A DNA stretch of 64,000 nt, from contig OZ076409.1 of NCBI GenBank assembly GCA_964187785.1, positions 6,512,001 to 6,576,000 on the forward strand, in the 5' to 3' direction. This document shows, piece after piece, positions 15,113 to 50,433 of the stretch. Source of the DNA: Amphiscolops sp. MND2022 (Eukaryota). Position 1 is the first letter of the stretch. Every line of letters starts with the position of its first letter. Under the pieces are notes generated by a model. The model made no database searches, had not been told where the DNA came from, and saw nothing but the letters and a program-made list of their open reading frames with translations. Made by a program: the position numbers and the translations under genes.

Positions 15113-16192
15113 ATGGTCAAACCTTTGGATTCATGCGTTGTTTGCAAAATCGTTACACTTCGCGATTAAACATCGCGAAATGGGTTTATCATACAAAAAA
15201 ATTAAAGAAAAGTTGGGTCTTAAATCTCGATCGACAACTCAAACAGCTTATCAGCGTTTTTTGAGAACGAACTCTTATGTGGCGAAAAAACCTCCAGGCC
15301 GGCCAGAAAAACTCAGCGAAAAAGAGCAAAGACTAATAGTTCGAAGAGTGCAAAAAGACACAAAAACAACATTAGAACGAGTAAGAGTACTGCAAAACTC
15401 TTTTTCAACGTCAAAGACAGTTTCTAAATGTACTATTCGAAGAATCCTGAAGAAGTACGGAATTGTTTCTAGAAAAGCCGCAAAAAAGTTCAACTTGAAC
15501 AAAAAACAAAGACTGATCAGAAAATGCTGGTGCTCGAGAATGTTGAAAAAGCCCCTTGGTTTTTATCCAGCGTCAATTTTCCACCGAAAATGGGAAAAGG
15601 TTTTTTAAAAGGCGCTATACCTAAGGCTCAAAAAGCGCAAAGTTGAGACCTCGAAACACCAAAATATCACAAAGTTTGAAAGCGGACCTTTTAGTCTCGT
15701 TCGGTTTCGTATGTTACGTTCAAAAAGGCGTAAATGAGAGGGGGGACCCTCTGCACTACCTCAGATGCATTTTCGCTGGCCAGATTTGGGTGGTATTGTA
15801 AGCTTGAAGAAGGTTGTTTTTGTTTCACTCGAACCTTTGCATTTTTGTTCTGAATTTTGGCTGGATGGAAACTAGGCTTCTGGGAAAACGTCGTATTCTC
15901 AGACGAAACCCGTGTGCGCTTGAATAATGATGGCGTTCTGCGAGTGTTCAGGAAAATTGGTCGTCGCTTTTGCCCCAAAAACACCCAAGGAATACGCAGG
16001 GACAAAAGATCTATGATGTTTTGGGGGGCCATCAGATCAGATGGTAGAAAAAAGCTAATTGAATGTCCCGCAACACTTAACAGTTACGGATATTTGGAGA
16101 TTTTAAAGCAATACGATCGACATTTGAATATACCGGATTTGGTGTTCCAGCAAGACAACGCCCCAGTACACAAAAGTGAAATTGTTCGCAAC
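15113..16192 (+). pseudogene. Tc1/mariner-family transposase, interrupted and 3'-truncated
   Basis: HTH region with GRP motif and TIRRILKKYG; W..VVFSDE, MFWGAI, FQQDNAPVH; roughly 320-bp insertion (about 15556-15872) with ATCCAGC/GCTGGAT inverted ends; third catalytic residue missing. Confidence 0.88.
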
Positions 16193-16376
16193 ACAGTTGA
16201 ATTCAGGAAAACTCAAGCAGCAATCAATTCTTGTAATTTCGCACGACGTCCTCAATAACAGCGTATCTTGCATCACTCCAACGGGAACAGCCCATTGAGC
16301 ACCTTTCAATTGATCGAAACTTGGGACAACACCGAGAACGAATTGCTGCACCGATCTATTGCCGAAAAACTGGTAC

Positions 16377-17797
16377 TGTCGCAGGCTGCCGCCTGTGGCG
16401 GCATTTTGTACCAAACTATGCCCCAGAACTGTCAAATTAACCCCGGACCTGGGTTACTACCATCATAGAAACTGAAACAACTCATTTACAGTGTTAATTA
16501 ACATTTACCATGTATCCGTTAATTTTAATTGCATTCAGTAAATGACCTGATCATGAAATCTGATATCCTACTGTTTGGACTTAAGGTCAAACTGACCGCA
16601 TCAACATATACATAATATTTATCTGATACCATGTTCTAGTCGCGTTGACGTGCTGTCTGCAGTTCTATTTAATCTCAAGTGCCATTAACATTCAGTACTG
16701 TACTATAGTCATTTTGACGTTTGGTCACAAACCGTCTATATTTGACAAACAGTACTAACTCAGTTATTTAGTGCAGTCAATCTGACACTAGGTCAACATG
16801 TTATTTCAGGCAATAATTTAGAATAGTTATCACGACGTAATGTAGTATTGCGTACATGTAACCACTAGTGCTACCAGTTATTGATTTAACCCATTCCAGT
16901 GCTATTTATAGTTAGTGATGTAATATGACGTCATGTCTACGCTTAGTTATTTATAGTATTATGACATCATGTGTATTTTGGGACCCTGACACCCCAAATA
17001 TTGATTGTCATGGTCCTCCAACACTATATACCAGGAGTCCGATGATTGAGGGATTCATTTTGTTGATACTGAAAACACGATATACAACTCTTTTCTTTTG
17101 ATCTAATTGATTGCAATATTCACTGTTAGAAACGTTCGATCTTCTTATCATGCCTTCTACTAGGAAGCAGAAAGCCAAGAAGAAGCGTTAAAGACAATCT
17201 GACGTAATGTCTGATAATGAAAATCTTGATGTAATGCTTGGAGCTTACTCAAGAATTGATTTAGTTGAGGAAGAGAATAATACTGAAACAGAAGTAGACT
17301 TAGAGTCAGATAGACTACAGCGGAGTGAAGGTCAAACTGAGAAAAACTTTTGGTCACTATTGAATACTAATCCAAGTGAAAACAGTGAGATTACTGTGGA
17401 AACTAACAGAAAAATCAATTCTGAATTTTCTTCCCAAATGTCTCGGAAACTAGAGGAATTGAAAACAGACCTAAATTCTCACATATTTGATGTAATTAAC
17501 TCTGCATTAGAGGAAAGAGTATTCCGAGCATTAAAAGTGCTCTAGAAACCAAGAATTCGGCTCAAAACACGAATTTGGACCTTCGGTCAGATGGACCGCA
17601 ATCGAGTAATTTTAGTCAAGAACGTGCCCAGAAGGACTTAAGGTCATATGGACGGCATCCGGAAAATTCCAGCCAAAGGTCTCAGGATGCTCAAAATGAC
17701 TTCCCCAGGTTAATAACAATGAATAATAACCGTACAAATCACTGTAGAAGAATTTCAATGAATTCCAACAATAGTGATGAAGATCATGGTTATGACA
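16377..17797 (+). repeat. 5' LTR (1421 bp)
   Basis: TGTCGCAGG...TTATGACA, direct repeat of 29995-31414. Confidence 0.95.
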
Positions 17798-18843
17798 TGG
17801 TGACAGGAGCCTACCTTACCCCACAAACGGTCCCTGAGTTCTGACCGGACGTCCCACGCAGTCTCGAAATACCAATCCCCATCAACAGTGCGTCAATGAC
17901 GACACGCTAGACACTACCTTACCGGCGCAACTACAGTCTGTCCCTATTAACAACTAGGGGCAACACTCTGAAACACCCCTAGACCCCATTAACCGTCTTG
18001 CAGACGTAATTATGGGAATGAACAACAAATCTTCCGCACAAACACTGATGGTACGCCCAGTCAATACCGCCACGCTGACATTTGATGGGAAATCCGAAAA
18101 GTTTGAACTGTTTGAAGTTGTTTGAAGATGATGAAGATCTTTCACACGATGATAAAGATGCAACCGGACATGACGGAAACAATGGAAATTAATCACTTCC
18201 ACTCACTGTTGCGCAAAAACGCGCTACAAACCTTCCGTAACACTAGTTCGGCAAACAGACAAACATTGGACGACATACTAGCCGTCTTTCGCCGAAAATA
18301 CGTCAAACCTGAATCTCAGGCTAGTGCCAAACACAAATGGCACAAACTTGTATTCAATCCAAATACAATGAAATTGCCTGATTTCCTCGAAGAACTCAAT
18401 CAGGCGCTGAAAAAGCCTTTGGAGAACACGCGCAAGCAATGATCGACAGTCTACTTTATGCCAAACCTCCACCAAAAATCAAACGTTCCGTCAACATGGC
18501 GCGATTAGAAAACGCTACCTATGAAGAGATCGTCACTCACCTAGAAGGTGAATTGGAATTAAATGGCCTTGAGGAAGGTGATGACATTCCCGTTCCCACA
18601 ATGTCCACAGCCCCAACAACGACACGTCCAGGACAAGGCCTCCTTTCGTCAGGAATTGACACAGGAACAACATGCAACTATTGCAAAAAACCTGGTCATG
18701 TCATAGACGAATGTCGCAAACTCAAAAAAAGGAGGAACAAAAACGTAATGAAGGCCAGAGTACCAAAAAAGAGTACCCAAAGTGCCCGACCTGTAACAAA
18801 ACAAACCACCCGGCGGAAAGGTGTTGGGAAGGCGCCATATTAA
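17150..18843 (+). pseudogene. gag-like ORF starting inside the 5' LTR, with stops and frameshifts
   Basis: MPSTRKQKAKKKR at 17150; capsid-like TFDGKSEKFE region; two CCHC knuckles CNYCKKPGHVIDEC and CPTCNKTNHPAERC. Confidence 0.8.
17798..17811 (+). promoter_or_regulatory. Primer-binding site, tRNA-Leu-like
   Basis: TGGTGACAGGAGCC directly after the LTR terminal CA; one mismatch to the common Leu PBS TGGTGTCAGGAG. Confidence 0.7.
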
Positions 18844-19299
18844 TGAAAAACTACGTGTCAGACAATACATAATATCTGACCCTTCCACTATATATTGTAC
18901 AGAATATTACGCTTCACTAAAAGAAAATTCATCTGCTGACTGGCAGCAGCAGGTGAAGAACACTCCTACTAATCTACTTGACTTGGACCACCAGTCCAAC
19001 AGACTCCACTGTAATACCAGTACTACCCGGCCCCTACCTCTTATAAATGACTATAACCCCTATTACCCTGACCCAGATTTTGGTTTTGATCCTTATTGGG
19101 ACATTCAGCTCTACAACCAACATCATCTTCACTTCTACAACAATTACCATACGAAACCCATGGCAATGGAACCTGATTCATATGACACTGACAGAAACCT
19201 CAACTTAACCCTGACCAAGGCTCTCGTAGACCTTTGGCAATATAAAAGGACCACCACAACTCTAGCAATTCCAGAACAACCAATAACCAAACCTTCCGA

Positions 19300-22200
19300 A
19301 GACGGACCTGTGGTCGCGCTGACTGCAGCCGTTGAAGAGCGCTTTGTGAACACGCTTATCTCAAGAGACGGTGAACCCGATTACGTCCCACTAACGACAA
19401 ATTTGGGACTCAAATACAAACGACGAAAGCTCTATTTTCCAATGGATTTCGGCGAACTTACATTAGATGGCCTTGTAGACACGCGAGCCCTATCGAGCAC
19501 GATCCCAGAAGCTGATCCACGTAAAATCCGACTATTAGCCCCTCAGTCAATAATCAAAGAGGGCCCAGCTCCTAACTTCCAAATTATGGTAGCTAATGGA
19601 CAGCTGGAAACTCCTAAGAGCACCGTCGAACTCAAATTCGAGGTTGGGATATCGACTTTCACGAGATTTTTGTAGTCATGGAAAAACTTACAAGTCCGTT
19701 AATTGGTCTCTCGTTCCTTCAACGGAAAAATACCATACTTGATATGAGAGAGGGAGTCCTAAATTTTCCGTTCTTTTCCATGCAATTGAAAACCGCCGAC
19801 CACAAGTACACTAATGTCATGGAACCTATTTGCGCTTGGGAGGACATAACTATTCCCCCCAATGATAGACATATGGTCTCCATGTGCTCACAAATGTATG
19901 AGGATACTAGCGTCACTGGAATTCTTCAACCGAGCACTGATTTTGCAGAAGATGGAGACATAACCTTCTGTGCTGCTCTAGTCACACTGACCCAAGGTCA
20001 GGTATCAATTCATGTGAATAACTTCGCGGATCAGCCTTACACCCTCAAACGAGGTTCGCACATTGCCAATTTCTCTGTCCTAACTCCAGAACAGTTGAAA
20101 TACGTTAAACCTATCGACCCAGTGACCACTTGGCATCTTCTACAGGATAATCCTGAAAATGCCGCCTACTATGCCAGCAGTCTAATTAAATCTCCGAAAG
20201 CTGAAGACACCACCAAAAACTATTGGTTTCCTACTCCAGAGCAACCAGGAGATCCTCAGACGCATACACCAATCCAACAAAGAAATCTCAGAGAATTGCA
20301 CAACCTGCAGGAACTAGAGAAACTCAACCCCCAGGATGACCCTGAGTCTAGGAAACAGTTTCTCGCCAACTTTGACTGGGCAGACTCGACGTTGAACCCA
20401 ACCGAAATTGCCCAAATCAAAGAGCTTCTTGTCGAATTCCACGACATTTTTGCACGACACCGCTTCGACATAGGAATGAATGAGAACTTCAAGGTAACAC
20501 TAACTCCTAAAGATGACTCCCCTGCCTACAGTCAAGGCTTACCTACACCGATCAATCTCAAGGAGGACATTCTCGTTGAATTAGCCCTTCTACACAGATA
20601 TGGGATCATAACAAGGCTCCCATTTTCCAAGTATGCAAGTCCCATCTTTGACCAGAAAAAACCAAATGGCAAATTACGACTCTTTGTCGATCTTTGCAAG
20701 ATCAATAATTTGATCTCTGATGATTATATCAATAACAATCATCCTGTGAGTACTTTAACGGACGCCGCACAGCACAAGGCACGCAAACGCCTGTTCTGCA
20801 TATTAGATTGTTTGCAGGCGTATCATTGTCTACAAATGGCGGACCAGAGGTCCATCGAGATGCTCGCATTCAACTTTGCTAGCAGGACATTCGCTTACCG
20901 CAGATTGGCGCAAGGTCTAAGAAGAGCTCTTTGTGCCTTCTCGAGTTTCATGCGTGAATATCTGGACAAGGTGATCAAAGCGGACCAATGCGCTCAGTAC
21001 GTAGATGATATTGGGATTGCTGCCAACAATGCTACGCAACTAATCAACAATTTGCGGGCTACCTTTGAATGCATTAGGACCCCAGGTCCCAAACTAACGA
21101 TGCATAAATGCCGTTTTGGAGCAAAGGATATTGACTTCCTGGGACGCACCATCAACCCTGAAGGATTGCGGCCACAACGACCCAGGGTCCAAAACTTCCT
21201 AGAAAAAACGAAATTCCCAAAATCCAAAAAAAGCACTCCAACGATACTTGGGCTTCCGAAACTATTATCGCAACTACATCCCAAGACTTTCAGAAAAACT
21301 GACCCTTTTTTCAAATGATTGAAAAATGATGCCAAAGTCCTGGTGACACCCGATCTGTTAGAACAATTCACCGAGATCAACAAAGCTCTTGACCGATGTT
21401 GTGAACTTGCACTCAAACAACCCCTGCCTAATAAACAAATAGCCCTAATGACAGACGCTAGTTTTTCGGCAGCAGGTTTCGCAGTTCTCATCGAGAATGA
21501 TCAAATGGAAAAATATTCATCAACGCGGAAAGCGTTCGCACCTGTAGCATATGGATCCAAGACCTTTATTCCCGCACAATTGAAAATGTCCATCTACGCC
21601 AAAGAGTTCTTAGCAATATTCTTTGCCTTCAAGGAATTTGGCCATATCTTTTGGGGGACTCCGAAACCGGTGATCATTCTGACAGACAACAAGTCGGTCA
21701 CTCGCTTTTTTCAAACTAAAACCATTCCACCAACCCTGTGGAACGCGTGTGACTACGTCATTCAGTTCAATTTCACAATCGCTCATATTCCTGGCAAAAA
21801 TAACACCGCCGCAGACTATCTGTCTTGTCTAGAAATTGGCCCTAAAGAGAAACTCATACTCCGCATACGGGAGGACATATCGACGACGCCCATCGAACTC
21901 AACGTCCAATCAGCTGGTGTCACTGAAGAGGACCAGATATTCTATACCGACGACGTTGAAGAAACTGAAGAACAGATCTGGCTGCGGAAGAAAAACGCCA
22001 AGTCACACCCGACAAACCAATTACCGGATATCACTCTAGGAAAACTCAGTGTCCACAACACTGTCTTCTCCCAACAGACAACTTTACAAAGACTATCAAA
22101 CTTCACCACCATGGCTATTGAACAACAAAATGATGTAGTTCTACATCAATTACGTCTCAAACTACAGAAAGAAGAATATTCTGAAACGATTTTACAGCAA

Positions 22201-23999
22201 GATCCCCGCTACCGTCATTACTGCAGTCAAATTGACCGTCTGTCCGTTCAGGATGACGTCATCACCAGAGATTATTATGACGAAACGGGAAGCGTTCAGT
22301 ACCGCCAGGCGATATTTTACCCAAACACCTCGTGTCAGATCTACTCCAATCACTACACGGAACAGCAAGCAAACATCCAGGGATTTCCAAGATGCTTTAC
22401 GAAATCCGTCAAAAATATTACTATCCTGGAATTGCAAAAATCGTCAAAAGTGGGTCCAAGGTACGAAATTTGTATCAAGGACAAAAGAATCAAAAACTCA
22501 TCAATCACACCAGAGCTACTCAATTTGCCTGAATGGGATCTTGGTCCAGAAGACGCTTTACAAATTGATCTGTTACCAAACCTCCCTCCGAGCGGGGGAT
22601 ATGAAAATATCATTACTGCTCTGGACGTCTTCTCCAGATACCTATTCGCCTACCCAGTAATTGATGCTTCGGCCTCAAGTACAGCAGAAGTACTTATTGA
22701 CATCATGACAAGACATGCCTACTTACCAACGACCCTCTTCACTGACAAAGGCACAGCATTTACGTCACGTCTGGGGGAAGGGATTGCCAAAAAATTGGGC
22801 ATCCAGATTAAATGCGCAACAACGAAACATCCTTAGACGATAGGCAAACTGGAGAGAAATCACGCTAGCCTTAAGGGCAACCTTAAAATGGCTTCCGGTG
22901 AATACTGTCGCCAATGGCACAAATATCTTTCATTGGCTGTCCTCAACTACAATACGACCTATCATTCGATTCTAGGATGCGAACCTTCCAGAATTTTCCA
23001 TGGAAGAGTACCGTACAACATTCTAGACTACCGGTCGGGCTCAAATCCCAACCCAAAATTCCCCCAACAACGGATTTTGCCGAGGAATCACAAAGACGTA
23101 CTCAAATTCTGATCGATAAAACGAAGAAAATATTCATCATGCAGTCGTACTTAAAGTACAAGGATTACTATGACCGCAAAACAAAGGCAGCCCGATTACA
23201 ACAGGGAGACTATTGTTTTATACTCCAGCCGCTAGCAGACCACCAGGTATCCAAAATTCCATTTCGAGAATTCCGGTGGATCGAGCCGTACGTCATTGAA
23301 AAAGGTTCACCAAACGAAAACTACATTGTCCGAAAACTCACCTCAAATAAAACGCAAATTTTACACCGGACACGTTTACGAAAATACACTCCGAATAAAG
23401 AATTACGTGACGTCCGCCCGGAAGGCAATTAGCAAGCTGATGATGAAATCGTCATACCACAAGACGATCTTTACATTATTTCTTGGGAAACGGAATTTGA
23501 TGATTTTCCTATGCATTCCGACCGAAAAAACACTTTCGATGATTCTCCAGTTGCTTCCGATCAACAGGATGCTATAATTACAGATTTGGACCTTCGGTCC
23601 ACTCGACGCGATCAAAATACTGACGACGCTATCACGGAGAAGCGTGAACAAGCAATCAACGATGCGGACCTTCGGTCCAATCGACTGCAGCAAGATACTA
23701 ATTCAGATGAGTCTGAGCAAATGGCTGAGCAGCCGGATGAAAATATGGATGACACGGACCTTAGGTCAAACCGACCGCAATCAACTACTGAGTCCGAAAT
23801 TGATGAAAAAACCTCCAAAAGCCCCTCAAAAGTGGGAAATTCCGACTTTTTGAATTCTAGAGGGAAGGATATAATCGTGCCCGATTTATCAGACAATGAA
23901 AGTGACGCAATGGTTGTAGAAAATGAAAGTCCCAGGGCAGGAAAAAAAATTCGACGTCCTAACCCTTCTCCAAACTTTACTGATGAGTTCAGATATTAG
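19300..23999 (+). pseudogene. pol: protease, RT, RNase H, integrase with GPY/F-like tail; disrupted
   Basis: LVDTRA (protease, mutated), YVDD, TDAS/KEFLA/TDNK/ADYLS, H..HPG..C zinc motif, IDLL/DVFSRY/TDKG/KLER, WIEPY; acidic C-terminal tail. Start coordinate approximate. Confidence 0.92.
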
Positions 24000-24139
24000 T
24001 CAGATATGTAAATTATGGCCTTTACTGAACTTTCTGATTATTTTATGGGCCCTGAACTGACTTTACGTTTTACGAAAAAACAGAAATGGCGCCAGAATTG
24101 TCCCAAACAACAAAACCGTAATACTGCAAGAAATAAACA

Positions 24140-27100
24140 AACAAATGTACTGCTAGTCGGATTGTCAGAATCAACTGATCCAAATTTCACGCTGGGTAAA
24201 ACAGGAAACGGCTCATCGAGGCACAGGCACGCCAAACGAAACAGCTTGTAGAGCAAAGGACAACTATGCAGGGTAGGCAATTCAACAAGGAATTTGACAG
24301 TGTCAGGAATCAGTAAAGTAGGCTGCGCCAAGTCAGAAAAAGTGCGTCTCACATCATCCAGGAATGACAAAAATTTTTCACCGCTTGCAGTTTCTTGATC
24401 TGTAGTAAAGTGGCCTCGCAGTCGGAAACTGGTAAACAATTGGGCATGACAGTAAGTCGCGTGCGCTATGGGTCCAAGCCAAAGGATTTCCGAATCGAAA
24501 CAACCGAAGCCTTTAACGAGGTCATTGGTGAGCCCCTTCAGTTCTTGGAACGAATTAAATAAAAAGGTGACGTAACTGCGTGCTGCCCTTCCAAACTCTT
24601 CTTTATTTTTACTGGACAGTGCGTCGATGGATAGTCCTGAGTTGCATTTTTCCAATTTGTCGTGTCCAGTTTTGATTTTGCAAGCCGCATCTAACTTAGA
24701 ACCAAACTTGGCCCGGGAAAGGAAATTTGAGACACTGAGTGCAGTTGTGGTACTCAAGTCCAAGTTGATGATTTCAGGCCAATTTTCTTCCAGAGGCAAA
24801 TCTTGTGGCGTGGAACATCGTCGCACAAGTTTGTAAAGAAACTGGCAGAGTTGTCGATAGGTATAAAATGATCTATCCCTCCGGCCAGTCAGACTGAGTG
24901 AAAAGGCATTAGCATCAAGACAAAACTAAGAGTCAGTTTGACGAAGTTAAATACTTATGAAACAAAGGAAAGGAAGACTAACAATCCCGTGCTAATCGTT
25001 GGAACAGTCCTAGTCGACAGGTGAAGAGCTCATCTCCAATATTCGACCATTCCAAGTTCTGCAGCTAGAAACGAGAGGTATTTGGTCACTGCGAAGGAAT
25101 TTGATTGTTTGACCAGAAGTCAGTTTGACCTTATCCCTACCTGGTTATGTACACCTTGCATCTGTTGCTTTGGCGAATGAGTAGTGAGGAACTCCACGAT
25201 TGACTTCCAATTCTTCAGCAATTCCTGACAGTTGGCATGTCCTGACAGCCTACAAACAATACAGTCATTTAGACCTATACTTAGTCATGAAAGCCCAAAA
25301 CGATGCAAGGCTCTAACCCTGGATAACTCAGGGGCAAGTAAGACGCACTCCATGTCCAGACTGCCGCCAAGGGAGACTATGAGGTACTTCAGTACAGAAA
25401 AGAAATCAATCCGCCCAAATACGGAATAACTGTCTTTGTGCATCAACTTGGCCAGAGACACCTCGTCAAATCGCTTGAAGCTTTGCACCCCAAATGTAAA
25501 CAAAGGACTCTCGTCCAATTCTTGAACGAACTCGAGCGAACATCCACTGGCACAAACTGGATTGGGACGTGCTGAAATAGCTCCCAAGAGGCTGGGGAAA
25601 AGATGTTTTTCAGCTTGGGTTTGTCCGACAGTCCGCCCTGTCCTTTTCAAGACGACACGGCATAGCTGATTGTCGCACCAGAATCGCAGGTGCATAAAGA
25701 GGAACAGGCCCCTTAACTCAAACTCCACAGCAAACTGCCCTTCAGCCACTATGTATTGTCCAAGGTCATCCAGCATTCGTACAAATATGTGATGGAACAG
25801 GACCTGAAAATACAAATCCGACATGCTAATAAGAAGATTTGAAACGTAACATAAAGTCAGAATGGCGATAGAACTAAGTGAAGCCTAATTTGTGAAGAGT
25901 ATCAATAAATCGAAGGATCATGTCTATTGGACGCAGAGTCGCAAACTGCTTTATGAGGACTTACTGAGAGGCGTTGAAGTCAGAGAACCCCAGTTGAAGT
26001 CAGAGAACAAGGCTTGGTGGTTGACGACGATTCCAATGTCCCTCCACAAGCTGCGCAAAGACATAATGTCACCAAAGTTAGGAAGGAAGTGTCCCAAGAT
26101 AGGATTTGTACTCGTACTCTGTTTTCAGACGAGGACGTCATGTGGGTATTTCCCGCCATAGCCTCATCGTAGAACGGTAGCTTCTCACCAATATCAACCA
26201 GAGCTACGTCTTTGAACTTTGGATACTCAAGTTCCAATTCGTGAGGTGTCAAGAGTTTACCTTTCTTGTCTCTGACGTTGTGACGGATCGTCTTTGTAAC
26301 TGGATCCTCGACCGACAGATGTTCGTAGCGCCACCGTTGATCCCTCCGGAGGTGACGCTCCATCCCGTGATGTCTGAGATTTTCCTTGGCACCCCTGCCA
26401 TAGATGGATACATTCCCCTTACAAATTTAGCAAAAAAAATTATAGTGGTTCCATCTAGGATTCGTTGGCCCTGACACGAAAGTTCGTGCCCAGCTCATTC
26501 TTTCAAATAGTTCCTCTCGCATCACCTTGTTAGAACTCCACACGGATTTCTTTTTCTTAGGTTTTGGACCATTGGGACGCTTGGAACCGCTCTTCCCTTT
26601 GTTTTTGTTTATTGCCGCTTCTCGTTTTAACTCAGCTAGAGTTTGAGCTCCTGGACTGTCTATGGTTTCTCCTAATGATTGAGACCGTGGGTCATTTCGA
26701 CTACAGCCGGGTACTGGAGGACTTGGGATATTGACCTCCGATGTTCGACTGGGAGTTTGCTCGTGAGAGTGATCAGTACTCCAAAAGTCACTTTGTCCAG
26801 AGAGGGTCCTGTGACGGAAAGTATATCGGTCAGTTTCTGAATCCGTACAAGTCGATTGAACCGATTTAGGCCGATGTATGTTTTTGGCGGAATAGGGGCT
26901 CTGGTTCAAACTAGGTTGGCTAGCCGTCAGAATGAGACTGTTCATCACCCCAAAAATTGACTTCGCCGTCTCGTCAGCTACCACTTTCAACATCTGGCAC
27001 ATCTGCTCCTGGTTAAACGCCACGGTCGGGTGCCCTTGTGGAAGACATATGGGGTTTGTTTCAGTGAAACATTTCCGAATTAATTCCCTGCTACTGATGG

Positions 27101-27672
27101 AAATGGGTGCCTCTCTGGTTGCCGCTATAGGTACCCGCACAGTTGACTCGTAGTCGGATTCATCGCTATTATAGATGATGTTCTGTCTGAGTCTGATGAG
27201 TCTGACCAATGGGACTACAACTAGGACGCGAAACCATTGGCTCGCTTTCACTCTGTTTGACCTCGCAATTAGATTTGGTTGTAACTTTAGGCTGCTCTGA
27301 TTTTTCCATCTCGCCTAGTTTCTTAGCCAGATATGCTTCGCAAGTTTCATCAGAGCCAGTACTGCCATTACTTGTGAATCCGCTCCTTCGGATTTCAGCG
27401 ACTAACTGTGCATCTTCAGATTCAGGTTCAGTTTTCACCGATACACCCAGAAGACGAGCAGGCTCGACGTCTGTATTCTCGGGACTGGATAAGCTGATCT
27501 CGATTACCTCAATTTCATCACTGGAAGTGCCTTCAATTCCTTCTCTGCGTGCCGAATTAGGAGAGCTCGTGTCCATGTTTTCGTCCGTTTCTTGAGCTGG
27601 TTGGCCGGTTGCTTCATTTTCTAAATGAAAAGAAATGAATAATCGCGGTTCGCTTCCTGCAAAAGTACCCAT
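24140..27672 (-). pseudogene. Antisense, spliced accessory gene of the LTR element encoding a BED-like zinc-finger protein
   Basis: Chain of minus-strand ORFs; C-x2-C-x16-H-x5-H near 26345-26432; GT-AG intron candidates at 27668-27621, 25964-25804 and 25140-25065. Confidence 0.7.
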
Positions 27673-29265
27673 CTTGCCGCATTCAAATAGCTTCCGGAAG
27701 TAGATTTAAAATTTCACACATCTTAGTATGTTTTCACGATGGAGGAAGAAACTTAGTTAAATGAAAGCCCTGATCAAGCTAAAATTTAACGCTTCAAAAG
27801 AACCAACCTGAGGATACTTCCATGACGGAAGGTCTGAATTCAGCTCTAAAACAGCAGTAAGATGTCGTATTGAATGGTCTCGATAGCTCCTCCCCGCAAA
27901 TATATTTGATGCGACCTTCAGTCGAATTGCTACATCAGAACCAGTGATAATCAAAGAATGGGTATTCTCAAAGCAAATGTTAGTTTTCAATTCAAAAGAA
28001 ACGGAATCAAAAAAGTATGGAAAACTGGTGAATGGGTTCAATATAAAGGCGAAGTTGACTTTAAATGATTTTCTTGTGGAAAACAAGGATTGAAGACAAT
28101 GACACTGCCCCAAGGTCAGAAAGACAGCATTAATTTCCTGATGGAAATTAATACAGCTTAAGTGATGCTACTCGGGAACTGCGTTCGATTACCGCTGTTA
28201 ATCTAAATAGTCAGACCAGACGTATTGTGAACATTTGGTAAAGACGGTCAATACACTACTGTATTCAAATGACGTAATGTAGGATGTATTATGTCGGTAG
28301 TGATTAGTGTTTACTTAGCCTGACTGTGCACACATTTATTATTTGCTTACTAGTACAATAGGTCCACTTGACCACAAACGCTTACATATACTCAGTTACC
28401 AGTGGAATGGGACCAGTAATAATACCAGCCTGCTTCCTTCCACATTGTGACGTCACTCATGATAAAAGACCACAGGTCATTCAGACTGCACTAAATTACT
28501 TACATGTACACCCTGTATTACTGAGACTAACTTTCTTCGACTGACAAAAATTAATCATAGCAACTCACTTTATTACCCGACATGCTGCGGAGTTACCTTC
28601 ATAAAGCAGCCCAACACCTCTAATGGAGTCTAATCAGTGAATACCATGCTCAACAAAGGTCCTAATTACGTTTGATTGAAGATTTGTAATTCAAATAAAA
28701 TTACAAAGAGAGAGCCGTGGCTGAAATTAAACTACTTAGAATGAAATTGTTCCTCAAATTTATGTCAATTGAAATTGGATTACCAACGTACATGAGTACT
28801 GAACCGGCCAGCGAAGTAATCCTATAGTGCACCATATTTGTAATTCAACCCTCCGACTATCGGTCAGATTAAGCTTACCACCTTATATATTCATCACATG
28901 CATCAATCAGGAAATCACTACATGAAAATTAGTTTTCATCATAATTCGCCATTTCACCTTATCAAATTTTCTCTTTATTTTATTTTTATCCAACTCATCT
29001 AATTGGTTAACATAACCACTGCTATTCTCCATGTTCTATTCAGTCTCCTTTGACTCCTATTCAGTCAAATCTACCTAATATAGGAAATTAAGGAAAATGG
29101 TGCGCGGGGTTACCCTTTCAGTTTTCCCGCGAATTCTGAGGTTAGACCTTAGGTCAAAGAGACCATGCCACTTCATTCTCACATATACTCAACTGAAAAT
29201 CAGTCTTGTCCAATCTATAAATCAAAATTGCCAAGAAACTTCTACTCAGCCGTTACAACGGGAGA

Positions 29266-30092
29266 ATGGCCCTCCAGTTCAACATGGAAGAACGCCCCAG
29301 ATCGCTAGTTAGCCTTGAATATGCTTCCTCTGATGAGGAAATGGAGGTAGACTCGGTCACATCAGTACAAGATTTGTTGGACAAAGAAGCGGAAGATGAT
29401 GGAATACAAGTGTTAGCTTGCTATTATGAAAATCCTCCGTTCCTTCCCTCCACAGCTGGCCGCAGGACGTGCCATGACAACAAATTTGACTGAAAATCTT
29501 AAGGACCTCAGCTTATCTGCAGAAACATTTCTAGATACAATTGACGATTTTACCGAACCTTCAGATGAATTAATTAACTGGGTCACCCTCCAGCCTTCTA
29601 CTGCGCTCAGAATGTAGATCATCACCCGATCGCGACGTGTAGTCAACTTGAGCCGGTTCCAGCAACCCCTGCTTCACCCCCACTAGCTGACCAAATGCCG
29701 TGCTACCAACTTGACAGCCAGCAACAGCACGAGCAATATACTGATCAATGGGTTCAGAACCCGCACATCACCGGACTAGCTATCTTCGTGAGTGGATACT
29801 GCGGGCAACCGAACGAGGCCTACACTCAGGATGTGTGGTCTGTGGAAAATCTTTCCTTGAAATCAGAGAGGAAATAACCCTTGGCTATCTAGAGGGATCA
29901 CATGTCAGTGGGGAAACATATGACCAGAGGATGGCCAGACGGGCTTTTCAAGCAGGAATGCGGGCAGGTTCATTTGTCTTAGTCCCCCGGGGAGTGTCGC
30001 AGGCAGCCGCCTGTGACGGCATTCTGTACCAAATTATGCCCCAGAACAGTCAAATTAACCCCGGACCTCGGTACTACCATTATAGAAACTGA
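29266..30092 (+). pseudogene. Extra sense ORF of the LTR element, ending inside the 3' LTR
   Basis: Overlapping ORF pieces from MALQFNMEE to GCVVCGK...VPRGVSQAAACDGILY, split by frameshifts. Confidence 0.5.
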
Positions 30093-31414
30093 AACAACTC
30101 ATTTACAGTGTTAATTAACATTTACATGTATCCGTTAATTTTAGTTGCATTTACTAAATGGCCTGATCATGAAATCTGATATCCTACTGTTTGGACTTAA
30201 GGTCAAACTGACCGCATCAACATATACATAATATTCATCTGATACCATGTTCTAGTCGTGTTGACGTGCTGTCTGCAGTTCTATTTAATCTCAAGTGCTA
30301 TTAACACTCAGTACTGTACTGTAGTCATTTTGACGTTTGGTCACAAACCGTCTATATTTAACAAACAGTACTAACTCAGTTATTTAGTGCAGTCAATCTG
30401 ACACTAGGTCAACATGTTATTTCATGCAATAATTTAAAATAGTTATCACGACGTAAGGTAGTATTGCGTACATGTAACCACTAGTTCTACCAGTTATTGA
30501 TTTAACCCATTCCAGTGCTATTTATAGTTAGTGATGTAATATGACGTCATGTCTGCGCTTAGTTATTTATAGTATTATGACATCATGTGTATTTTAGGAC
30601 CCTGACAACCCAAGTAATGATTGTCATGGTCCTCCAACTTTTAATACCAGGAGTCCGATGATTGAGGGATTCATTTTGTTGATACTGAAAACACGATATA
30701 CAACTCTTTTGTTTTGATCTAATTGATTGCAATATTCACTGTTAGAAACGTTCGATCTTCTTATCATGCCTTCTACTAGGAAGCAGAAAGCCAAGGAGAA
30801 GCGTTCAAGACAATCTGACGTAATGTCTGATAATGAAAATCTTGATGTAATGCTTGGAGCTTACTCAAGAATTGATTTAGTTGAGGAAGAGAATAATACT
30901 GAAACAGAAGTAGACTTAGAGTCAGATAGACTACAGCGGAGTGAAGGTCAAACTGAGAATAACTTTTGGTCACTATTGAATACTAATCCAAGTGAAAACA
31001 GTGAGATTACAGTGGAAACTAAGAGATTAATCAATTCTAAAATTTCTTCCCAAATGTCTCGGAAACTAGAGGAACTGAAAACAGACCTAAATTCTCACAT
31101 ATTTGATGTAATTAACTCTGCATTAGAGGAAAGAGTGCTTCCGAGCATTAAAAGTGCTCTAGAAACCAAGAACTCGGCTAAAAACGCGATTTTGGAGCTT
31201 CGGTTACATGGACCGCATTCGAGTAATTTTAGTCAAGAACGTGCCCAGAGGGACTTAAGGTCATATGGACGGCATCCGGAAAATTCCAGCCATAGGTTTC
31301 ACGATGCTCACAATGACTTCCCCAGGTTAGTAACAATGAATAAAAACCGTACGAATCACTGTAGAAGGATTTCAATGGATTCCAACAATAGTGATAAAGA
31401 TCATGGTTATGATA
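29995..31414 (+). repeat. 3' LTR (1420 bp)
   Basis: Preceded by the purine tract GGGGAG; TGTCGCAGG...TTATGATA (terminal CA>TA) followed by the TSD GGTAC. Confidence 0.95.
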
Positions 31415-31437
31415 GGTACGAACTGAGTGAAGTCTGA
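30766..31437 (+). CDS. Uninterrupted LTR-encoded ORF (216 codons inside the LTR, ending in the flank)
   Basis: MPSTRKQKAKEKRSRQSDVMSD...DHGYD is open in the 3' LTR; the 5' LTR copy has a stop and a frameshift. Expression unknown. Confidence 0.5.
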   Translation: MPSTRKQKAKEKRSRQSDVMSDNENLDVMLGAYSRIDLVEEENNTETEVDLESDRLQRSEGQTENNFWSLLNTNPSENSEITVETKRLINSKISSQMSRKLEELKTDLNSHIFDVINSALEERVLPSIKSALETKNSAKNAILELRLHGPHSSNFSQERAQRDLRSYGRHPENSSHRFHDAHNDFPRLVTMNKNRTNHCRRISMDSNNSDKDHGYDRYELSEV

Positions 31438-41330: not shown

Positions 41331-41502
41331 AATTTCAGCATTGTTACAAATACCAATATCAAATTTTCAATTGCCTGTCTTTGATTAACTGATCAAAGCT
41401 GACATGATTCTGTCTTTGTCATATTCCTGATACGAAAAAATTGGCTGAAATACAATCTTACGGAACTACTCGTTCTGCAAACTTTTTTGAGGCGAATGAA
41501 AT

Positions 41503-43806
41503 ATCTTCGATCACGTCTCATCTTTTCAATGCTAGTTAAACATGCTAGCCTAGGAATTTAACACTGACAATTTGACAATTCGTATTGTTTTCGTCTTGAA
41601 TGTATATGTGCACCTGTATATGTGCATTCGCCTCACTTGCCTTCCTTCTGTGTCAATTCTATTGTACTATTTTCTTTGTTCTGGAATCAATGATAGAAAG
41701 TCATTTGTACTGCCACATCCCGAAGGTTAATTGATCTCTTCTTTTTAGTCGACGCTTTTCTAGTGAAAAGTGCCCGACACTTACAGTGGCTAGTTTTTTT
41801 TCGTCAGACTACAATCCCACTCTGATTGGGCCACTTTCCTCTTACAATCGAAACCATTAGGGTCGCCAATGGGCGCAAGTGGTCGTCGCGACCTGTTGAA
41901 CAAAAAAATGATTGAATTGCAAAAACTATCTGAAGTCGTTACGAAATTAGATGCCCACTATGGTTTCTTTTTGTTGAAGAACTGCTTTAGTCTACCTAAA
42001 CAACTATACTTTCTTCGTACAAGCCATTGCTTTGAAGAGGTGGACCTCCTACAGCAGTATGATTCCATTATCCGCAAATCATTGTCCAAAATCTGCAATG
42101 TGAATTTTGATGAAAGCAGCTATACTCAAGCGATTCTCCCAGTCTTCAAAGGGGGCATAGGCATTCCATCGGCTTCCCAGATTGCTCTTCCTGTTTTTTA
42201 GCTTCAGCAACGGGCGCCAAACGTGTTTTGTCGTGTATCCTCCACGAAGACTATGTTGATGCATCGTTTGAAAAGGCTCTGGATTTATGGTTGACGAGGG
42301 CGAACCTGACAGAAGCACCGTCGGACTCCATCCAAAAACATTGGACCTCTCCTCTGAGCGATGCTACTTTTGATCAACTTATTTTAGACCTTGATGCGGA
42401 AAATGTCAAAGGCTGAATGCTTATCAAGACCCCTTTGGTTCAGCTTGGCTGAATGTTGTACCAAGCAAAAATCTCGGTCTGAAGTTGACAGATCAGCAAC
42501 TGCGCATCTCCTTATCCCTCCGCCTGGGTTCGAAAATTTGCGAGAAACACACTTGCCGCTGTGGTAAACTTGTCGAAGAGCCCGGACATCATGGTCTTTC
42601 CTGTGCCAGAAGCGCGGGACGTTTCTCGAGGCACCACAACCTCAATACAACCTCAACATCTTCGATCACGTCTCATCTTTTCAATGCTAGTTAAACATGC
42701 TAGCCTAGGAATTTAACACTGACAATTTGACAATTCGTATTGTTTTCGTCTTGAATGTATATGTGCACCTGTATATGTGCATTCGCCTCACTTGCCTTCC
42801 TTCTGTGTCAATTCTATTGTACTATTTTCTTTGTTCTGGAATCAATGATAGAAAGTCATTTGTACTGCAACATCCCGAAGGTTAATTGATCTCTTCTTTT
42901 TAGTCGACGCTTCTCTAGTGAAAAGTGCCCGACATTTACAGTGGCTAGTTTTTTATTCGTCAGACTACAATCCCACTCTGATTGGGCCACTTTTCTCTTA
43001 CAATCGAAACCATTAGGGTTGCCAATGGGCGCAAGTGGTCGTCGCGACCTCTTGAACAAAAAAATGATTGAATTGCAAAAACTATCTGAAGTCGTTACGA
43101 AATTAGATGCCCACTATGGTTTCTACTTGTTGAAGAACTGCTTTAGTCTACCTAAACTACTATACTTTCTTCGTACAAGCCATTGCTTTGAAGAGGTGGA
43201 CCTCCTACAGCAGTATGATTCCATTATCCGCAAATCATTGTCCAAAATCTGCAATGTGAATTTTGATGAAAGCAGCTATACTCAAGCGATTCTCCCAGTC
43301 TTCAAAGGGGGCATAGGCATTCCATTGGCTTCCCAGATTGCTCTTCCTGCTTTTTTAGCTTCAGCAACGGGCGCCAAACGTGTTTTGTCGTGTATCCTCC
43401 CCGAAGACTATGTTGATGCATCGTTTGAAAAGGCTCTGGATTTATGGTTGACGAGGGCGAACCTGACAGAAGCACCGTCGGACTCCATCCAAAAACATTG
43501 GACCTCTCCTCTGAGCGATGCTACTTTTGATCAACTTATTTTAGACCTTGATGCGGAAAATGTCAAAAGGCTGAATGCTTATCAAGACCCCTTTGGTTCA
43601 GCTTGGCTGAATGTTGTACCAAGCAAAAATCTCGGTCTGAAGTTGACAGATCAGCAACTGCGCATCTCCTTATCCCTCCGCCTGGGTTCGAAAATTTGCG
43701 AGAAACACACTTGCCGCTGTGGTAAACTTGTCGAAGAGCCCGGACATCATGGTCTTTCCTGTGCCAGAAGCGCGGGACGTTTCTCGAGGCACCACAACCT
43801 CAATAC
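41503..43806 (+). repeat. Tandem duplication, period about 1155 bp
   Basis: 41503-42648 and 42658-43806 are near-identical, with a 9-nt filler AACCTCAAC. Confidence 0.92.
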
Positions 43807-44563
43807 TCACGTGAAACAGGCGCTGAGTTCCATCAAAGTTCCCTCAATTTTGGAACTATATGGTCTGACCCGAACAGATGGAAAGCGCCCAGATGGAATT
43901 ACCCTAGCGCCCTGGGAGGAAGGCAAGCAATTAGTCTGGGATGTTACTTGTGTCGATCTTCTCGCCCCCAGTAGAATAGAGAACGGGTCTGTTGCCAACC
44001 CAGGCACAGCAGCGGAGGATGCAGAGGAATTGAAAACGGCTAACTACGTTTGTTTGACTGACAAAGGATACATCTTCCAACCATTAGCCTTTGAAATTCA
44101 GGGAGGAGTCGGACCTTCCACGTCTACCTTCTTGAAAAACCTCTGTAAAAAATTGTGCGTGTGCAATCAAGAAAATAGAGGGGTGGGCGGAAATAGGTCG
44201 AAGGAACGGGATCGAAAATCAGAGTTAGTCCTCAGGTCGTTATACCAAATTTTTTGAATGGGATCGAAACAACTCGGATCGAAATTTTTAAAACGTAGTC
44301 AGATATGTTCACATACCCCTAGTGCCCTAAATGCAGGAGCGAAGCGAAGCGGAGCGACGTGCCATTATGGCCATGCCTCACTTTTGCTACTTGGCGAAGG
44401 GAGCGAAGCGACCGAGCCATACAACAAACACGATAAAATTCGACCGCATTCCATTCGATCCCAGCAATTCGATCAAAAGGTTCGACCTCTGTCCTTTCGA
44501 CCAGAAAAATTCGACCTGTTTACAGCCACCCAAAATAGAGCTGGGTCGTTTTTCAGGCAGAGA
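43008..44563 (+). mobile_element. 5'-truncated CRE-like element (second family), RT thumb plus RLE domain
   Basis: PKLLYFLR, GGIGI, CRCG..HGLSC, RH, KRPDG, WDVTCVD; interrupted by a MITE at 44181, resuming as AGSFFRQR. Confidence 0.88.
44181..44531. mobile_element. MITE with 9-bp TSD (Mutator-like)
   Basis: TSD AAAATAGAG at 44172-44180 and 44532-44540; imperfect TIRs GGGTGG...AGGTCGAA. Confidence 0.85.
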
Positions 44564-45967: not shown

Positions 45968-47175
45968 GCAGGATTGGAAAATAATAATGGTGTCATATCA
46001 CAATTTCAATCACTGGAATAAAATGAGGTAATGATCAAAATGGTATAGTGATTCCAGAAAGTTCCCGATTAACCTGGCGAATTCCTCGTGCAAAATCTTT
46101 CAAACAGATCACTCAGTTTGAAGACTACTCTATAATCATAGATGTTCATTACACTTGCGATAAGCAAGTGTTATGGGAAAGTGCGGTTGCTTTTTTTTCC
46201 TGTGCGTCAACTCTCATTTCACGCGACAAGTCGCACATTTCACGCGCTCGTGGTCTAGTGGTAAGATGTTTGTTTTTCAACCCAGAGGTTTCGTGTTCGA
46301 ACCCGTGGGTATGCGCTCATTTTCTTTACAAGTATTCCAAAGCAGAAGGTTCTCACTTTTTTGGGCACTATGAGATTTTTCGGCTTTGTGCGACTTTTTC
46401 GAAATTTTTGAAATGTCCCCAAAGAGTCCTCCTTTCAATTTTTTTTTGATAATTTGCAACAGAACGAGTATTAAAAATCGCAAAGGGTCCCTTTTTCAGA
46501 ATTTTCGGCACTATGAGACTGTTCAAAATTCTCATTTTTTGTTTTCGAAAATTTTTTAAAGACTCCCTTCTCATTTTTTTTCAAAAATTTTTAATGTCTA
46601 CAGAGGGTCCACCCTTCTCTTTGTTTGATATCTTGCAACAGAACGAATGTTGAAAAATCTCAAAGGGTCCCTTTTCCAGATTTTTCGGCACTATGAGACT
46701 GTCATTTAAATCTCATTTTTTGTGTTTTTTCGAAATTTTTTTATTAAAGACTCCAAAGAGTCCCCCTTCAATTTTTTGAAATTTTGCAACAGTTTCCGGC
46801 ATTGTGACATTTTTCCAAAGGGATAATTTTCGTGTTAAAATTAGGTTTTCTCAGGTCCGGCACGCTATATCCGATTTCTGTTGTTTTAAAAGACAGGTGT
46901 TTTTTCTATGCGACTTTTTTAAAAAATTTGTTTCACCGAAGCCCCTCCTCAACTTTTGCCAGAAACGAAACGTTTTGCGAGAGTTAAGGACTCCTCAATC
47001 TTTTCGGCACTATGCGACTTACTGGAAACCATCAAAAATATTTTCGAAAAATTTTTTTCTCAATTTTTTGTTTTTTAAAGGTTTTTGAGAAAGATGGGTT
47101 TTTTGCTGTTTTCAGTTGGGGAAGAATGGTTTTCGAGACTTATGCGTATCCTTTCGGGTATTTTTTGGTGCTGTA

Positions 47176-50100
47176 TATTGTTAAATTGATGAAATTTTAA
47201 TGTCCTTTTACCCTTGGTTCTCCTTATGATATTACTCATTTGGTTTTCTTCAAAAGTTCGCAAGTGTTTGCGAAGCACGGCTTCGCCTCTGTGTTGAACA
47301 ATTTCCGTGACTAGGCATTCCGTGCATTCTAGGCAAAATGCGAAGATAAGTATCAGAATAACCAATCGAAAACCACGCATTTGCCACAATATCGTAGCAG
47401 TATGGCATTGGCATAGGAATGGATTGGAAAATGGGTACAAAAACACCGAACAGTGAGTTTGCACAAACAGTAAGATGATTTTTGAACAACTCGGGATGTA
47501 ATTCTTTAGTACCTTTCTGTAGATTGGCATCAAAGCAACCACTGATTTTGTTGATTAGTCTAGACGGATTGCTCAAATATCGGTGCTGTAGTGTAATTAT
47601 CAGCATGGCAGGTCTCAACTTGGAAGAATAGGTTTGAATCCTTTCAGCACTAAATCTTTGCCTTAGTGTCGTAGTGGGTAGCTGTAGCATCCAGCTGAGC
47701 TACCTGAAATGTTTCTTTTTTGAAAACGTTTCTTTTTGAATAACAGAAAAGACCTCAAACAATTGGTAGAATATGAAATAATAAACTTATTGTAAAGAAA
47801 TCGAAATTAATGGAGAAAGAGAGAGAACACTATATTATTGTAAGGGCGATAGCTGGCAGCTTACCATATAATAAGTCTAAATGACTTATGCAAGCATAAG
47901 TAGTTGTTTCCAATTTCACAAACAAATTTGAAAAAGAAACAAGCCGAGACCGGCCCAAGTCGGCGCCATATCCAAGGCTCAAAAATAGCAAAAAGACTTC
48001 CAAGTGTCAAGTATTCGTTTACAGTAGTCGAAAATCGAAAATTTTTCGATTTTTTTTTTGAAAAAATTACATACTAAAAAAATGGACCGAGTGGCGCGCC
48101 GGGGCTCGCTACTGCGAGCCCCTGGCGCGCTAACGTCTCACAATGCCGAAAAACTGAAAGGGGGACCCTTTGAGGTTTTTCAACATCCATTCTGTCGCAA
48201 AACATGAAAAAATTGAAGAAAAATTTTTTTTTCATTTTCGGGATAAAATCTCACAATGCCGAAAAAAACTGAAAGGAGGAACCCTTTGGGATTTTCCAAC
48301 ATCCATTCTGTCGCAAAACATCAAAAAAATGCAGGGGGGACCCTTTGAGGAAAAAAAATTTCGAAAAAAAAATCCGGAAAAAAATGTCTCGCAGTGCCGA
48401 AAAAAATTGAAAGGGGGGACTCTTTGGTCTCGCCCGGTATGATATGTTACGCGGAAAAACAGGTAAAACCATTTTGATTCAGTTCGCTAGGCCAAATGGT
48501 GCTATTTGACACCATAAAATTTTGTAGAACTTTTAAGAACTATTTTGGTCAGTTCGTGTGGATAGAAAAAAAAAGAGTCACTATAATAGTCGCGTTTCAC
48601 TTCATGAAGCGCCGACTAAAAAGACACCGGTTTATTTGAAGCGGAAATCACGCCAGGTACTAGCTACTTGGATAGGAACTGCATTTGACTCTTTTTCCAG
48701 ATGAATTTTCAATCGACTTTTGAATACATGTAGGCTCACACTTTGATCTCGCATATGTAGCGGTAGTGAGTTCCACTTCAGTGAAGTACAACGATGAGCA
48801 AGTATTGTTAAATTGATGAAATTTTAATGTCCTTTTACCCTTGGTTCTCCTTATGATATTACTCATTTGGTTTTCTTCAAAAGTTCGCAAGTGTTTGCGA
48901 AGCACGGCTTCGCCTCTGTGTTGAACAATTTCCGTGACTAGGCATTCCGTGCATTCTAGGCAAAATGCGAAGATAAGTATCAGAATAACCAATCGAAAAC
49001 CACGCATTTGCCACAATATCGTAGCAGTATGGCATTGGCATAGGAATGGATTGGAAAATGGGTACAAAAACACCGAACAGTGAGTTTGCACAAACAGTAA
49101 GATGATTTTTGAACAACTCGGGATGTAATTCTTTAGTACCTTTCTGTAGATTGGCATCAAAGCAACCACTGATTTTGTTGATTAGTCTAGACGGATTGCT
49201 CAAATATCGGTGCTGTAGTGTAATTATCAGCATGGCAGGTCTCAACTTGGAAGAATAGGTTTGAATCCTTTCAGCACTAAATCTTTGCCTTAGTGTCGTG
49301 TAGTGGGTAGCTGTAGCATCCAGCTGAGCTACCTGAAACGTTTCTTTTTTGAAAACGTTTCTTTTTGAATAACAGAAAAGACCTCAAACAATTGGTAGAA
49401 TATGAAATAATAAACTTATTGTAAAGAAATCGAAATTAATGGAGAAAGAGAGAGAACACTATATTATTGTAAGGGCGATAGCTGGCAGCTTACCATATAA
49501 TAAGTGTAAATGACTTATGCAAGCATAAGTAGTTGTTTCCAATTTCACAAACAAATTTGAAAAAGAAACAAGCCGAGACCGGCCCAAGTCGGCGCCATAT
49601 CCAAGGCTCAAAAATAGCAAAAAGACTTCCAAGTGTCAAGTATTCGTTTACAGTAGTCGAAAATCGAAAATTTTTCGAATTTTTTTTTGAAAAAATTACA
49701 TACTAAAAAAATGGACCGAGTGGCGCGCCGGGGCTCGCTACCGCGAGCCCCTGGCGCGCTAACGTCTCACAATGCCGAAAAACTGAAAGGGGGGACCCTT
49801 TGAGGTTTTTCAACATCCATTCTGTCGCAAAACATGAAAAAATTGAAGAAAAAATTTTTTTTCATTTTCGGGATAAAATCTCACAATGCCGAAAAAAACT
49901 GAAAGGAGGAACCCTTTGGGATTTTCCAACATCCATTCTGTCGCAAAACATCAAAAAAAATGCAGGGGGGACCCTTTGAGGAAAAAAAAATTCGAAAAAA
50001 AAATCCGAAAAAAAATGTCTCGCAGTGCCGAAAAAAATTGAAAGGGGGGACTCTTTCGTCTCGCCCGGTATGATATGTTACGCGGAAAAACAGGTAAAAC

Positions 50101-50433
50101 CATTTTGATTCAGTTCGCTAGGCCAAATGGTGCTATTTGACACCATAATATTTTGTAGAACTTTTAAGAACTATTTTGGTCAGTTCGTGTGGATAGAAAA
50201 AAAAAGAGTCACTATAATAGTCGCGTTTCACTTCATGAAGCGCCGACTAAAAAGACACCGGTTTATTTGAAGCGGAAATCACGCCAGGTACTAGCTACTT
50301 GGATAGGAACTGCATTTGACTCTTTTTCCAGATGAATTTTCAATCGACTTTTGAATACATGTAGGCTCACACTTTGATCTCGCATATGTAGCGGTAGTGA
50401 GTTCCACTTCAGTGAAGTACAACGATGAGCAAG
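47176..50433 (+). repeat. Tandem duplication, period about 1627 bp, inside SF3B3 intron 1
   Basis: 47176-48802 and 48803-50433 are near-identical; each carries a minus-strand Helentron-like copy (about 47938-48622 and 49567-50252). Confidence 0.93.

Follow-up and report, generated by a model that had tools for sequence, protein, structure and literature searches.

We describe a Ty3/gypsy retrotransposon family in which gag appears to begin midway through a 1.4-kb long terminal repeat (LTR), and in which the cut-off gag frames carried by 3' LTRs would be passengers of the copying process, a reading to which we assign a probability of roughly 70%. A gag start within an LTR is known; what appears to be new, and is well supported by sequence comparison, is that about 200 Gag codons under selection lie in the LTR of a large Ty3/gypsy family. 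The copy analyzed here is a dead element of ~15 kb in the window (the whole 64-kb stretch of DNA that was analyzed), recognized by LTR comparison and domain matches.

Repeat comparison and LTR alignment place the 5' LTR at positions 16377..17797 (1421 nt, TGTC...GACA) and the 3' LTR at 29995..31414 (1420 nt), both on the plus strand, and the alignment identifies the target-site duplication GGTAC on the left (16372..16376, +) and on the right (31415..31419, +). The LTRs are direct repeats with TG...CA termini inside this 5-bp duplication, the one exception being the 3' LTR of the window copy, which begins TGTC and ends TGATA, that is, in TA. A putative primer-binding site, TGG-led, directly follows the 5' LTR (17798..17809, +), lies within the gag frame and codes for MVTG; no tRNA genes were found in the 64-kb window. 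The purine run CCCCCGGGGAG stands before the 3' LTR (29984..29994, +), where a polypurine tract is expected. Between the two LTRs the pairwise alignment shows 62 substitutions and 3 gap columns, its 66 differing columns in all including one that sits one base past the LTR end. From this divergence and from frameshifts in gag and pol we conclude that the window copy is old and dead.

The remainder of gag (17798..18869, +) encodes a linker, a capsid-like domain and zinc knuckles, and in the window copy it carries several frameshifts, with at least three further shifts past the primer site (five tblastn pieces on the 5' side). The fragmented pol region (19160..23999, +) comprises a protease-like stretch without a Pfam match, dUTPase, reverse transcriptase (RT), RNase H, an integrase core and an acidic tail, with Pfam matches in the order RVT_1 (3.6e-17), RT_RNaseH (3.1e-14) and rve (3.9e-10). 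Matches in the PDB were generic (foamy RT 5.6e-15, Ty3 RT 9.4e-8). The dUTPase domain between protease and RT (19678-21315; E 0.00013, just above the Pfam cut-off) is a rare trait among Ty3/gypsy elements.

Five antisense frames of 148-295 codons also lie within the element (24041..27705, -) and have no significant Pfam match; an ESM Atlas search with the frame at 24041-24925 gave no usable match. From their sequence, the five are perhaps pieces of one broken gene of more than 1000 codons with a Cys/His motif near 26430, and could represent either a fragmented accessory gene or a nested insert. Ahead of them, an AT-rich stretch (28100-28700) has 33 8-mers in common with the non-coding half of the LTR, including TGACGT and TACATGTA; the mean is 19.5 and 7 of 194 other stretches reach 33, making the stretch perhaps a weak candidate for an internal antisense promoter. 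A Tc1/mariner-type transposase fragment (15180-15608, +; HTH_Tnp_Tc3_2 1.2e-8) adjoins the element on its left. Elsewhere in the window we observed a 410-codon frame at 43025-44257 and tandem duplications at 41500-43800 and 47170-50250, with periods of ~1156 and 1629 nt and 98-100% identity, which are either young duplications or assembly artefacts.

The gag frame within the LTR starts at an ATG that is present, as the initial annotation had it, in both copies, at 17150 (LTR base 774) in the 5' LTR and at 30766 (LTR base 772) in the 3' LTR. The start had been placed about 650 nt into the LTR; it actually lies 773 nt from the LTR start, and 648 nt is the distance to the LTR end. In the 3' LTR the frame (30766..31437, +; its product is P0001) is indeed open for 216 codons through the LTR end, and then acquires seven flank-coded residues before a stop. 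Its 5' counterpart, encoding the Gag N-terminus (17150..17797, +), covers 648 of 1421 nt (46%), in keeping with the claim that nearly half of the LTR is coding, and is interrupted twice, at codon 14 by a stop and near 17520 by a one-base gap. The junction of the LTR (TGACA) with the primer site (TGGTGACAGGAG) was said to create an ATG of its own, and does so: the LTR's final base joins the first two of the primer site to form an ATG at 17797..17799 (+) that is in frame with Gag and corresponds to Met 218 of the intact relative P0121. Uninterrupted reading from LTR through primer site into gag had been claimed for the 5' copy, where the stop, the gap and the later shifts preclude it; it is found in natural relatives. 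P0001 has no Pfam match above cut-off. In base shuffles, 216 codons remained open in 0 of 20,000.

A protein search with P0001 returned 415 proteins of 122-391 aa and 74 longer ones. The longer matches are Gags of ~560-600 aa that start MPSTRKQ and run through GYD/MVTGA into the capsid region; the nearest long Gag, P0121 (599 aa, 41 members), is 84% identical to P0001. Pfam matches to its Gag domains are weak but consistent (DUF1759 1.7e-5, Retrotrans_gag 0.019, zf-CCHC 0.043), and in the relative P0368 zf-CCHC scores above the cut-off alongside Ty3_capsid (0.0075). The cut-off frames form clusters of 37, 57, 24, 23, 22, 22 and 21 members. A search with the Gag core only, a query that does not select for the LTR part, gave 3056 matches; of the best 120, 84 have an MPST-like start and are open as far as the junction, 26 begin further on in the LTR part, 5 begin at the junction Met and 5 escaped the motif. 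Across relatives the LTR-coded part of Gag measures 183-218 codons (303 in one case), with the gag start codon within the LTR and the primer site within gag, a Ty1-like layout. No confirmed locus related to P0121 was found in metagenome, genome or viral contigs.

We looked among these relatives for a family whose Gag begins at the junction ATG and saw none. Of 17 Gag frames whose called start lies at the junction or further on, 15 share 91-99.6% identity past the junction with a full-length relative, which marks them as damaged copies; the other two are without a close relative in the set compared. No subfamily without the LTR extension was seen among the 17.

The position of the LTR end can be checked from proteins, since an LTR ending ...GAC A dictates an A as first base of the first flank codon and a C as last base of the codon preceding the junction Met. 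Of 119 matches, 17 read into MVTGA, 19 ended early, and all of the remaining 83 carried a tail residue of the A-first type (83/83; background 0.42). A set of 165 cluster members, 28 of which are also among the 119 matches, comprised 33 that ended early, 4 that continued into MVTG and 128 with tails, of which 126 fit; in the two exceptions the script had placed the cut two residues too early. Directly before the junction Met stands D, N or Y in 110 of 110 cases, and each of these residues has a codon ending in C. Five cut-off forms from groups at ~41-46% identity also fit the LTR end by eye, and a script count for distant cut-off forms gave 8 of 9, with two rows misregistered. In the five most distant Gags (P0192, P0351, P0354, P0361 and P0368) the LTR end is a presumed one, placed by the MVTG peptide only. 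The fit of 83/83 and 126/128 tails bears out the proposal that 3' LTRs carry an open, cut-off gag frame entering host DNA.

The distant Gags P0354, P0432 and P0366 contain two or three MVTG-like peptides in tandem, a pattern that duplication of the primer-site region within gag would leave; these peptides may record the LTR border moving along the gene.

Several observations indicate that the LTR-coded part is under selection as protein. The 128 full-length Gags include 14 groups with less than 70% identity in the LTR part, all of them open at 183-217 codons (one at 303), so that changes in length have preserved the frame. Of 4000 simulated trials of unconstrained substitution, 6 left the frame open at 56% identity, and at 44% none of 4000 did, figures to be read knowing that protein searches detect open frames only and that the relatives were compared as protein sequences. 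P0001 consists of a basic head (residues 1-32), an acidic linker, a helix at about 75-138 and a second linker, and identity by block across 21 representatives was 0.65 for the head, 0.40 for the helix, 0.20 and 0.20 for the linkers and 0.79 for the capsid. The share of changes that are conservative was 17/23 for the head and 70/161 for the helix, compared with 98/477 for the linkers (p 1.5e-7 for the head and 5e-8 for the helix). Measured against the single-base expectation the head was significant (p 0.0006) and the helix borderline (70/161 versus 0.37, p 0.053). Conservation is thus patchy in these sequences, as in a protein, with head and helix kept and linkers not; part of the head conservation could reflect DNA or RNA signals near the start site. 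Relatives' frames, LTR-end fit and block conservation together uphold the initial view of the LTR frame as the coding N-terminus of Gag and indicate selection on it.

AlphaFold predicts one helix at residues 4-29 (pLDDT 55-64) and another at 75-138 (pLDDT 74-92 over 81-130), with linkers at ~30 and disorder elsewhere. The basic N-terminus proposed from the window sequence is conserved, as is the long predicted helix; the hydrophobic period of the helix is 3.86, not 3.5, and a plain heptad coiled coil is therefore not supported. The predicted helix is nonetheless likely a coiled coil, though not of the plain heptad kind. Complex prediction for three copies of P0121 residues 64-142 scored 0.02 and 0.07 and weighs neither way. 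Residues 1-217, the LTR-coded part, gave no usable match in the ESM Atlas, and a Foldseek search with the whole low-confidence model (mean pLDDT 46.6) gave no match at E 0.001.

If the gag ATG is used, the 5' half of the LTR (16377..17149, +) must hold the promoter. This half is non-coding, with 15-24 stops in each of the six frames and 15 ATGs before the gag ATG; such a load of upstream ATGs (15-16 in the LTR) suggests that the RNA probably starts near the gag ATG, or that its leader is spliced. Positions 17095-17149 contain a pyrimidine run and CTAAT with an AG ~20 nt before the gag ATG; the sequence resembles an acceptor for splicing or trans-splicing, or else a start-site motif. Eleven relatives have an open stretch upstream, and similar short peptides recur in most of them (by eye); these peptides appear to be one DNA motif read in different frames and so would fit a non-coding signal. 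Neither LTR has a splice-donor match to two strict patterns, AATAAA is absent from the 5' LTR and occurs once in the 3' LTR, and RNA folding of 30730-30900 showed nothing special (z -0.72).

We propose that transcription begins upstream of the gag ATG, within the 5' half of the LTR, and that ribosomes would read the 183-218 LTR codons and pass the LTR end and primer site to make a Gag of ~560-600 aa. The LTR part would give Gag a basic head and a long amphipathic helix, each followed by a floppy linker, before the capsid domain begins. RNA, membrane or an importin is the probable binding partner of the head, and the helix probably mediates oligomerisation. In reverse transcription the minus strand, begun at the primer site, copies the 5' end of the RNA, and this segment lands in both LTRs. 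At each new insertion the 3' LTR would thus receive a duplicate of the open frame for free, and the segment past the poly(A) site would never be transmitted from the 3' copy. The 3'-LTR frame would enter flanking DNA, end after about a dozen codons and then decay without selection. Copying alone accounts for open 3'-LTR frames, and selection is not needed.

Whether the spare frames are used bears on two claims of the initial annotation, copy-number control and gene birth from 3' or solo LTRs. The first part of this, an open frame in 3' LTRs, stands; solo LTRs are not needed to explain the counts. In the P0121 group, the Gag cluster has 41 members and the main cut-off cluster 37. Of 15 cut-off members listed, 6 match the 15 listed Gag members in contig size, where complete pairing would predict 5.5 (by eye). 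In the P0143 group, 116 Gags face 57+21+24+15 cut-off members, and 8 of 15 listed Gag members were matched among 60 listed cut-off members (7.7 expected; by eye). By these pairing counts, a rough proxy, most cut-off forms look like 3' LTRs rather than solos. Taken with the decay and tail data below, the sequence evidence leans toward spare frames that go unused.

Two related readings would give the fragment a function. In one, which we consider unlikely, an oligomerisation module of Gag has moved into the LTR and each 3' LTR makes a capsid-less decoy that tunes or poisons assembly; if so, copy-number feedback would be built into LTR duplication itself, in contrast to Ty1 p22, and host DNA would supply every insertion with a new C-terminal tail to try out. 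In the other, to which we give slightly less credence, the cut-off N-terminal protein from 3' or solo LTRs would bind full Gag through the shared helix and dampen assembly as copy number rises. Hundreds of open cut-off frames (the 415 matches of 122-391 aa) retain the confidently predicted 60-residue helix, their dose would scale with copy number, and in the available text of PMC5408680 Ty1 p22 offers the precedent of a Gag fragment restricting its own element. However, the LTR part spans residues 1-217 and capsid-like matches begin at 313, leaving the fragment without the C-terminal capsid half of Gag that control of the p22 type employs. The family is also very large, as the 3056 Gag-core matches attest, and open 3' frames call for no selection: the LTR pair in the window, from one old element, differs by 6 silent and 25 replacement changes (pN/pS 1.07, neutral), and in 25% of trials a frame stays open through decay of this extent. 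The suggestion of copy-number control was not borne out by these results, and passenger frames remain the reading we prefer.

We regard it as very unlikely that the LTR serves as a ready promoter, start codon and N-terminal domain seeding host genes by fusion to the flank. Every 3'-LTR frame does read into its flank, and an LTR-supplied AUG is described as having started the mouse gene D6Ertd527e in the portion of PMC5538554 available to us. The tails, however, are at or below the length expected of random flanks (median 12 residues versus 15; Mann-Whitney p 0.03, shorter), those of at least 50 aa number 9 of 128 versus 10.7% expected, and in another set they number 5 of 83, the longest 130. 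No related tails were found among 45 and 50 tails of at least 15 aa, the fusion frame is neither longer nor more conserved than chance, and the lack of a strict splice-donor match in either LTR also counts against seeding. With tails mutually unrelated and no longer than chance, the gene-birth claim finds no support here; rare single fusions of an LTR to a host gene may occur.

A further reading, to our minds just as improbable as gene seeding, would keep the long frame under selection and yet derive most Gag from the junction ATG or an inner Met, giving long and short Gag as murine leukaemia virus has glyco-Gag and Gag. All 19 aligned Gags have the junction Met, the peptide after it is kept at 0.68, and the short form would retain capsid and zinc knuckles. 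A scanning ribosome, though, would meet several in-frame ATGs earlier, the short frames described above yield no subfamily without the extension, and the junction Met needs no other cause, being forced by the terminal CA of the LTR and the TGG of the primer site. From the broken 5' copy and the lack of a Pfam match for P0001 one might argue that the frame arose by chance in non-coding LTR sequence, or that the repeat is no LTR, but this idea, hardly credible, is refuted by the target duplication, TG..CA termini, primer site, purine run, base shuffles (0/20,000) and 14 diverged groups that all stay open.

If gag is read as we propose, with the LTR-coded segment as its selected start and the 3' frames as passengers, the usual division between regulatory LTR and coding interior is stretched: ~650 nt of selected Gag sequence would sit in the first-copied part of the LTR, so that the first strong-stop DNA would be at least as long and the primer site would be translated. 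Annotation that seeks gag after the primer site would miss a third of the protein, and gene callers would report hundreds of orphan "genes" of 215-260 aa that are 3' LTRs (415 such matches). The family is, besides, a large natural series in which to ask whether any spare LTR frames get expressed or co-opted.

The domain order resembles that of the rotifer elements Juno, Vesta and TelKA, the planarian Burro and basidiomycete elements, in which dUTPase also lies between protease and RT according to the available portions of PMC5408684 and PMC6431247. Those portions mention no gag start in the LTR for dUTPase-bearing Ty3/gypsy elements, and such a layout is likewise unmentioned in the available text on plant extra ORFs (PMC6317226). 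In the available literature on acoel LTR elements, including what could be seen of PMC9911081, neither LTR nor gag structure is described. A literature search for gag genes that begin far within an LTR, whose sources were available in part, and whose range lay outside supplements and outside Repbase and most older subscription papers, where such layouts may be recorded, gave Ty1 only.

Mouse ERVL/MaLR LTRs give host genes a promoter, an AUG and a splice donor, as the available part of PMC5538554 describes, and share with this family an LTR start codon able to lead into the flank. As far as that part goes, theirs is a short first exon with a splice donor, mostly from solo LTRs and expressed, whereas the LTR here holds a long piece of Gag that appears selected, and solos seem scarce.

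The Ty1 p22 protein consists of a capsid-like region of Gag, in the text available from PMC4599808. Copy-number control by p22/p18 and the present case are alike in that the element itself encodes a cut-off Gag; here the predicted fragment is an N-terminal extension without capsid. Long coding sequence within an LTR is a likeness to the retroviral case as well. The retroviral genes MMTV sag, HIV nef and foamy bel2 lie in U3 and are separate genes expressed from the 3' LTR, whereas the frame described here is the beginning of Gag and lies in the LTR's 3' half.

In Ty1, ~14 gag codons lie within a 334-nt LTR and the primer site falls inside gag. That gag of Ty1, a Ty1/copia element of Saccharomyces cerevisiae, begins in the 5' LTR is also stated in the accessible text of PMC3522557. 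Both systems therefore have their gag start in the LTR, but here 183-218 codons with a predicted folded helix take up 46% of a 1.42-kb LTR in another superfamily. The layout is a much enlarged Ty1-like arrangement.
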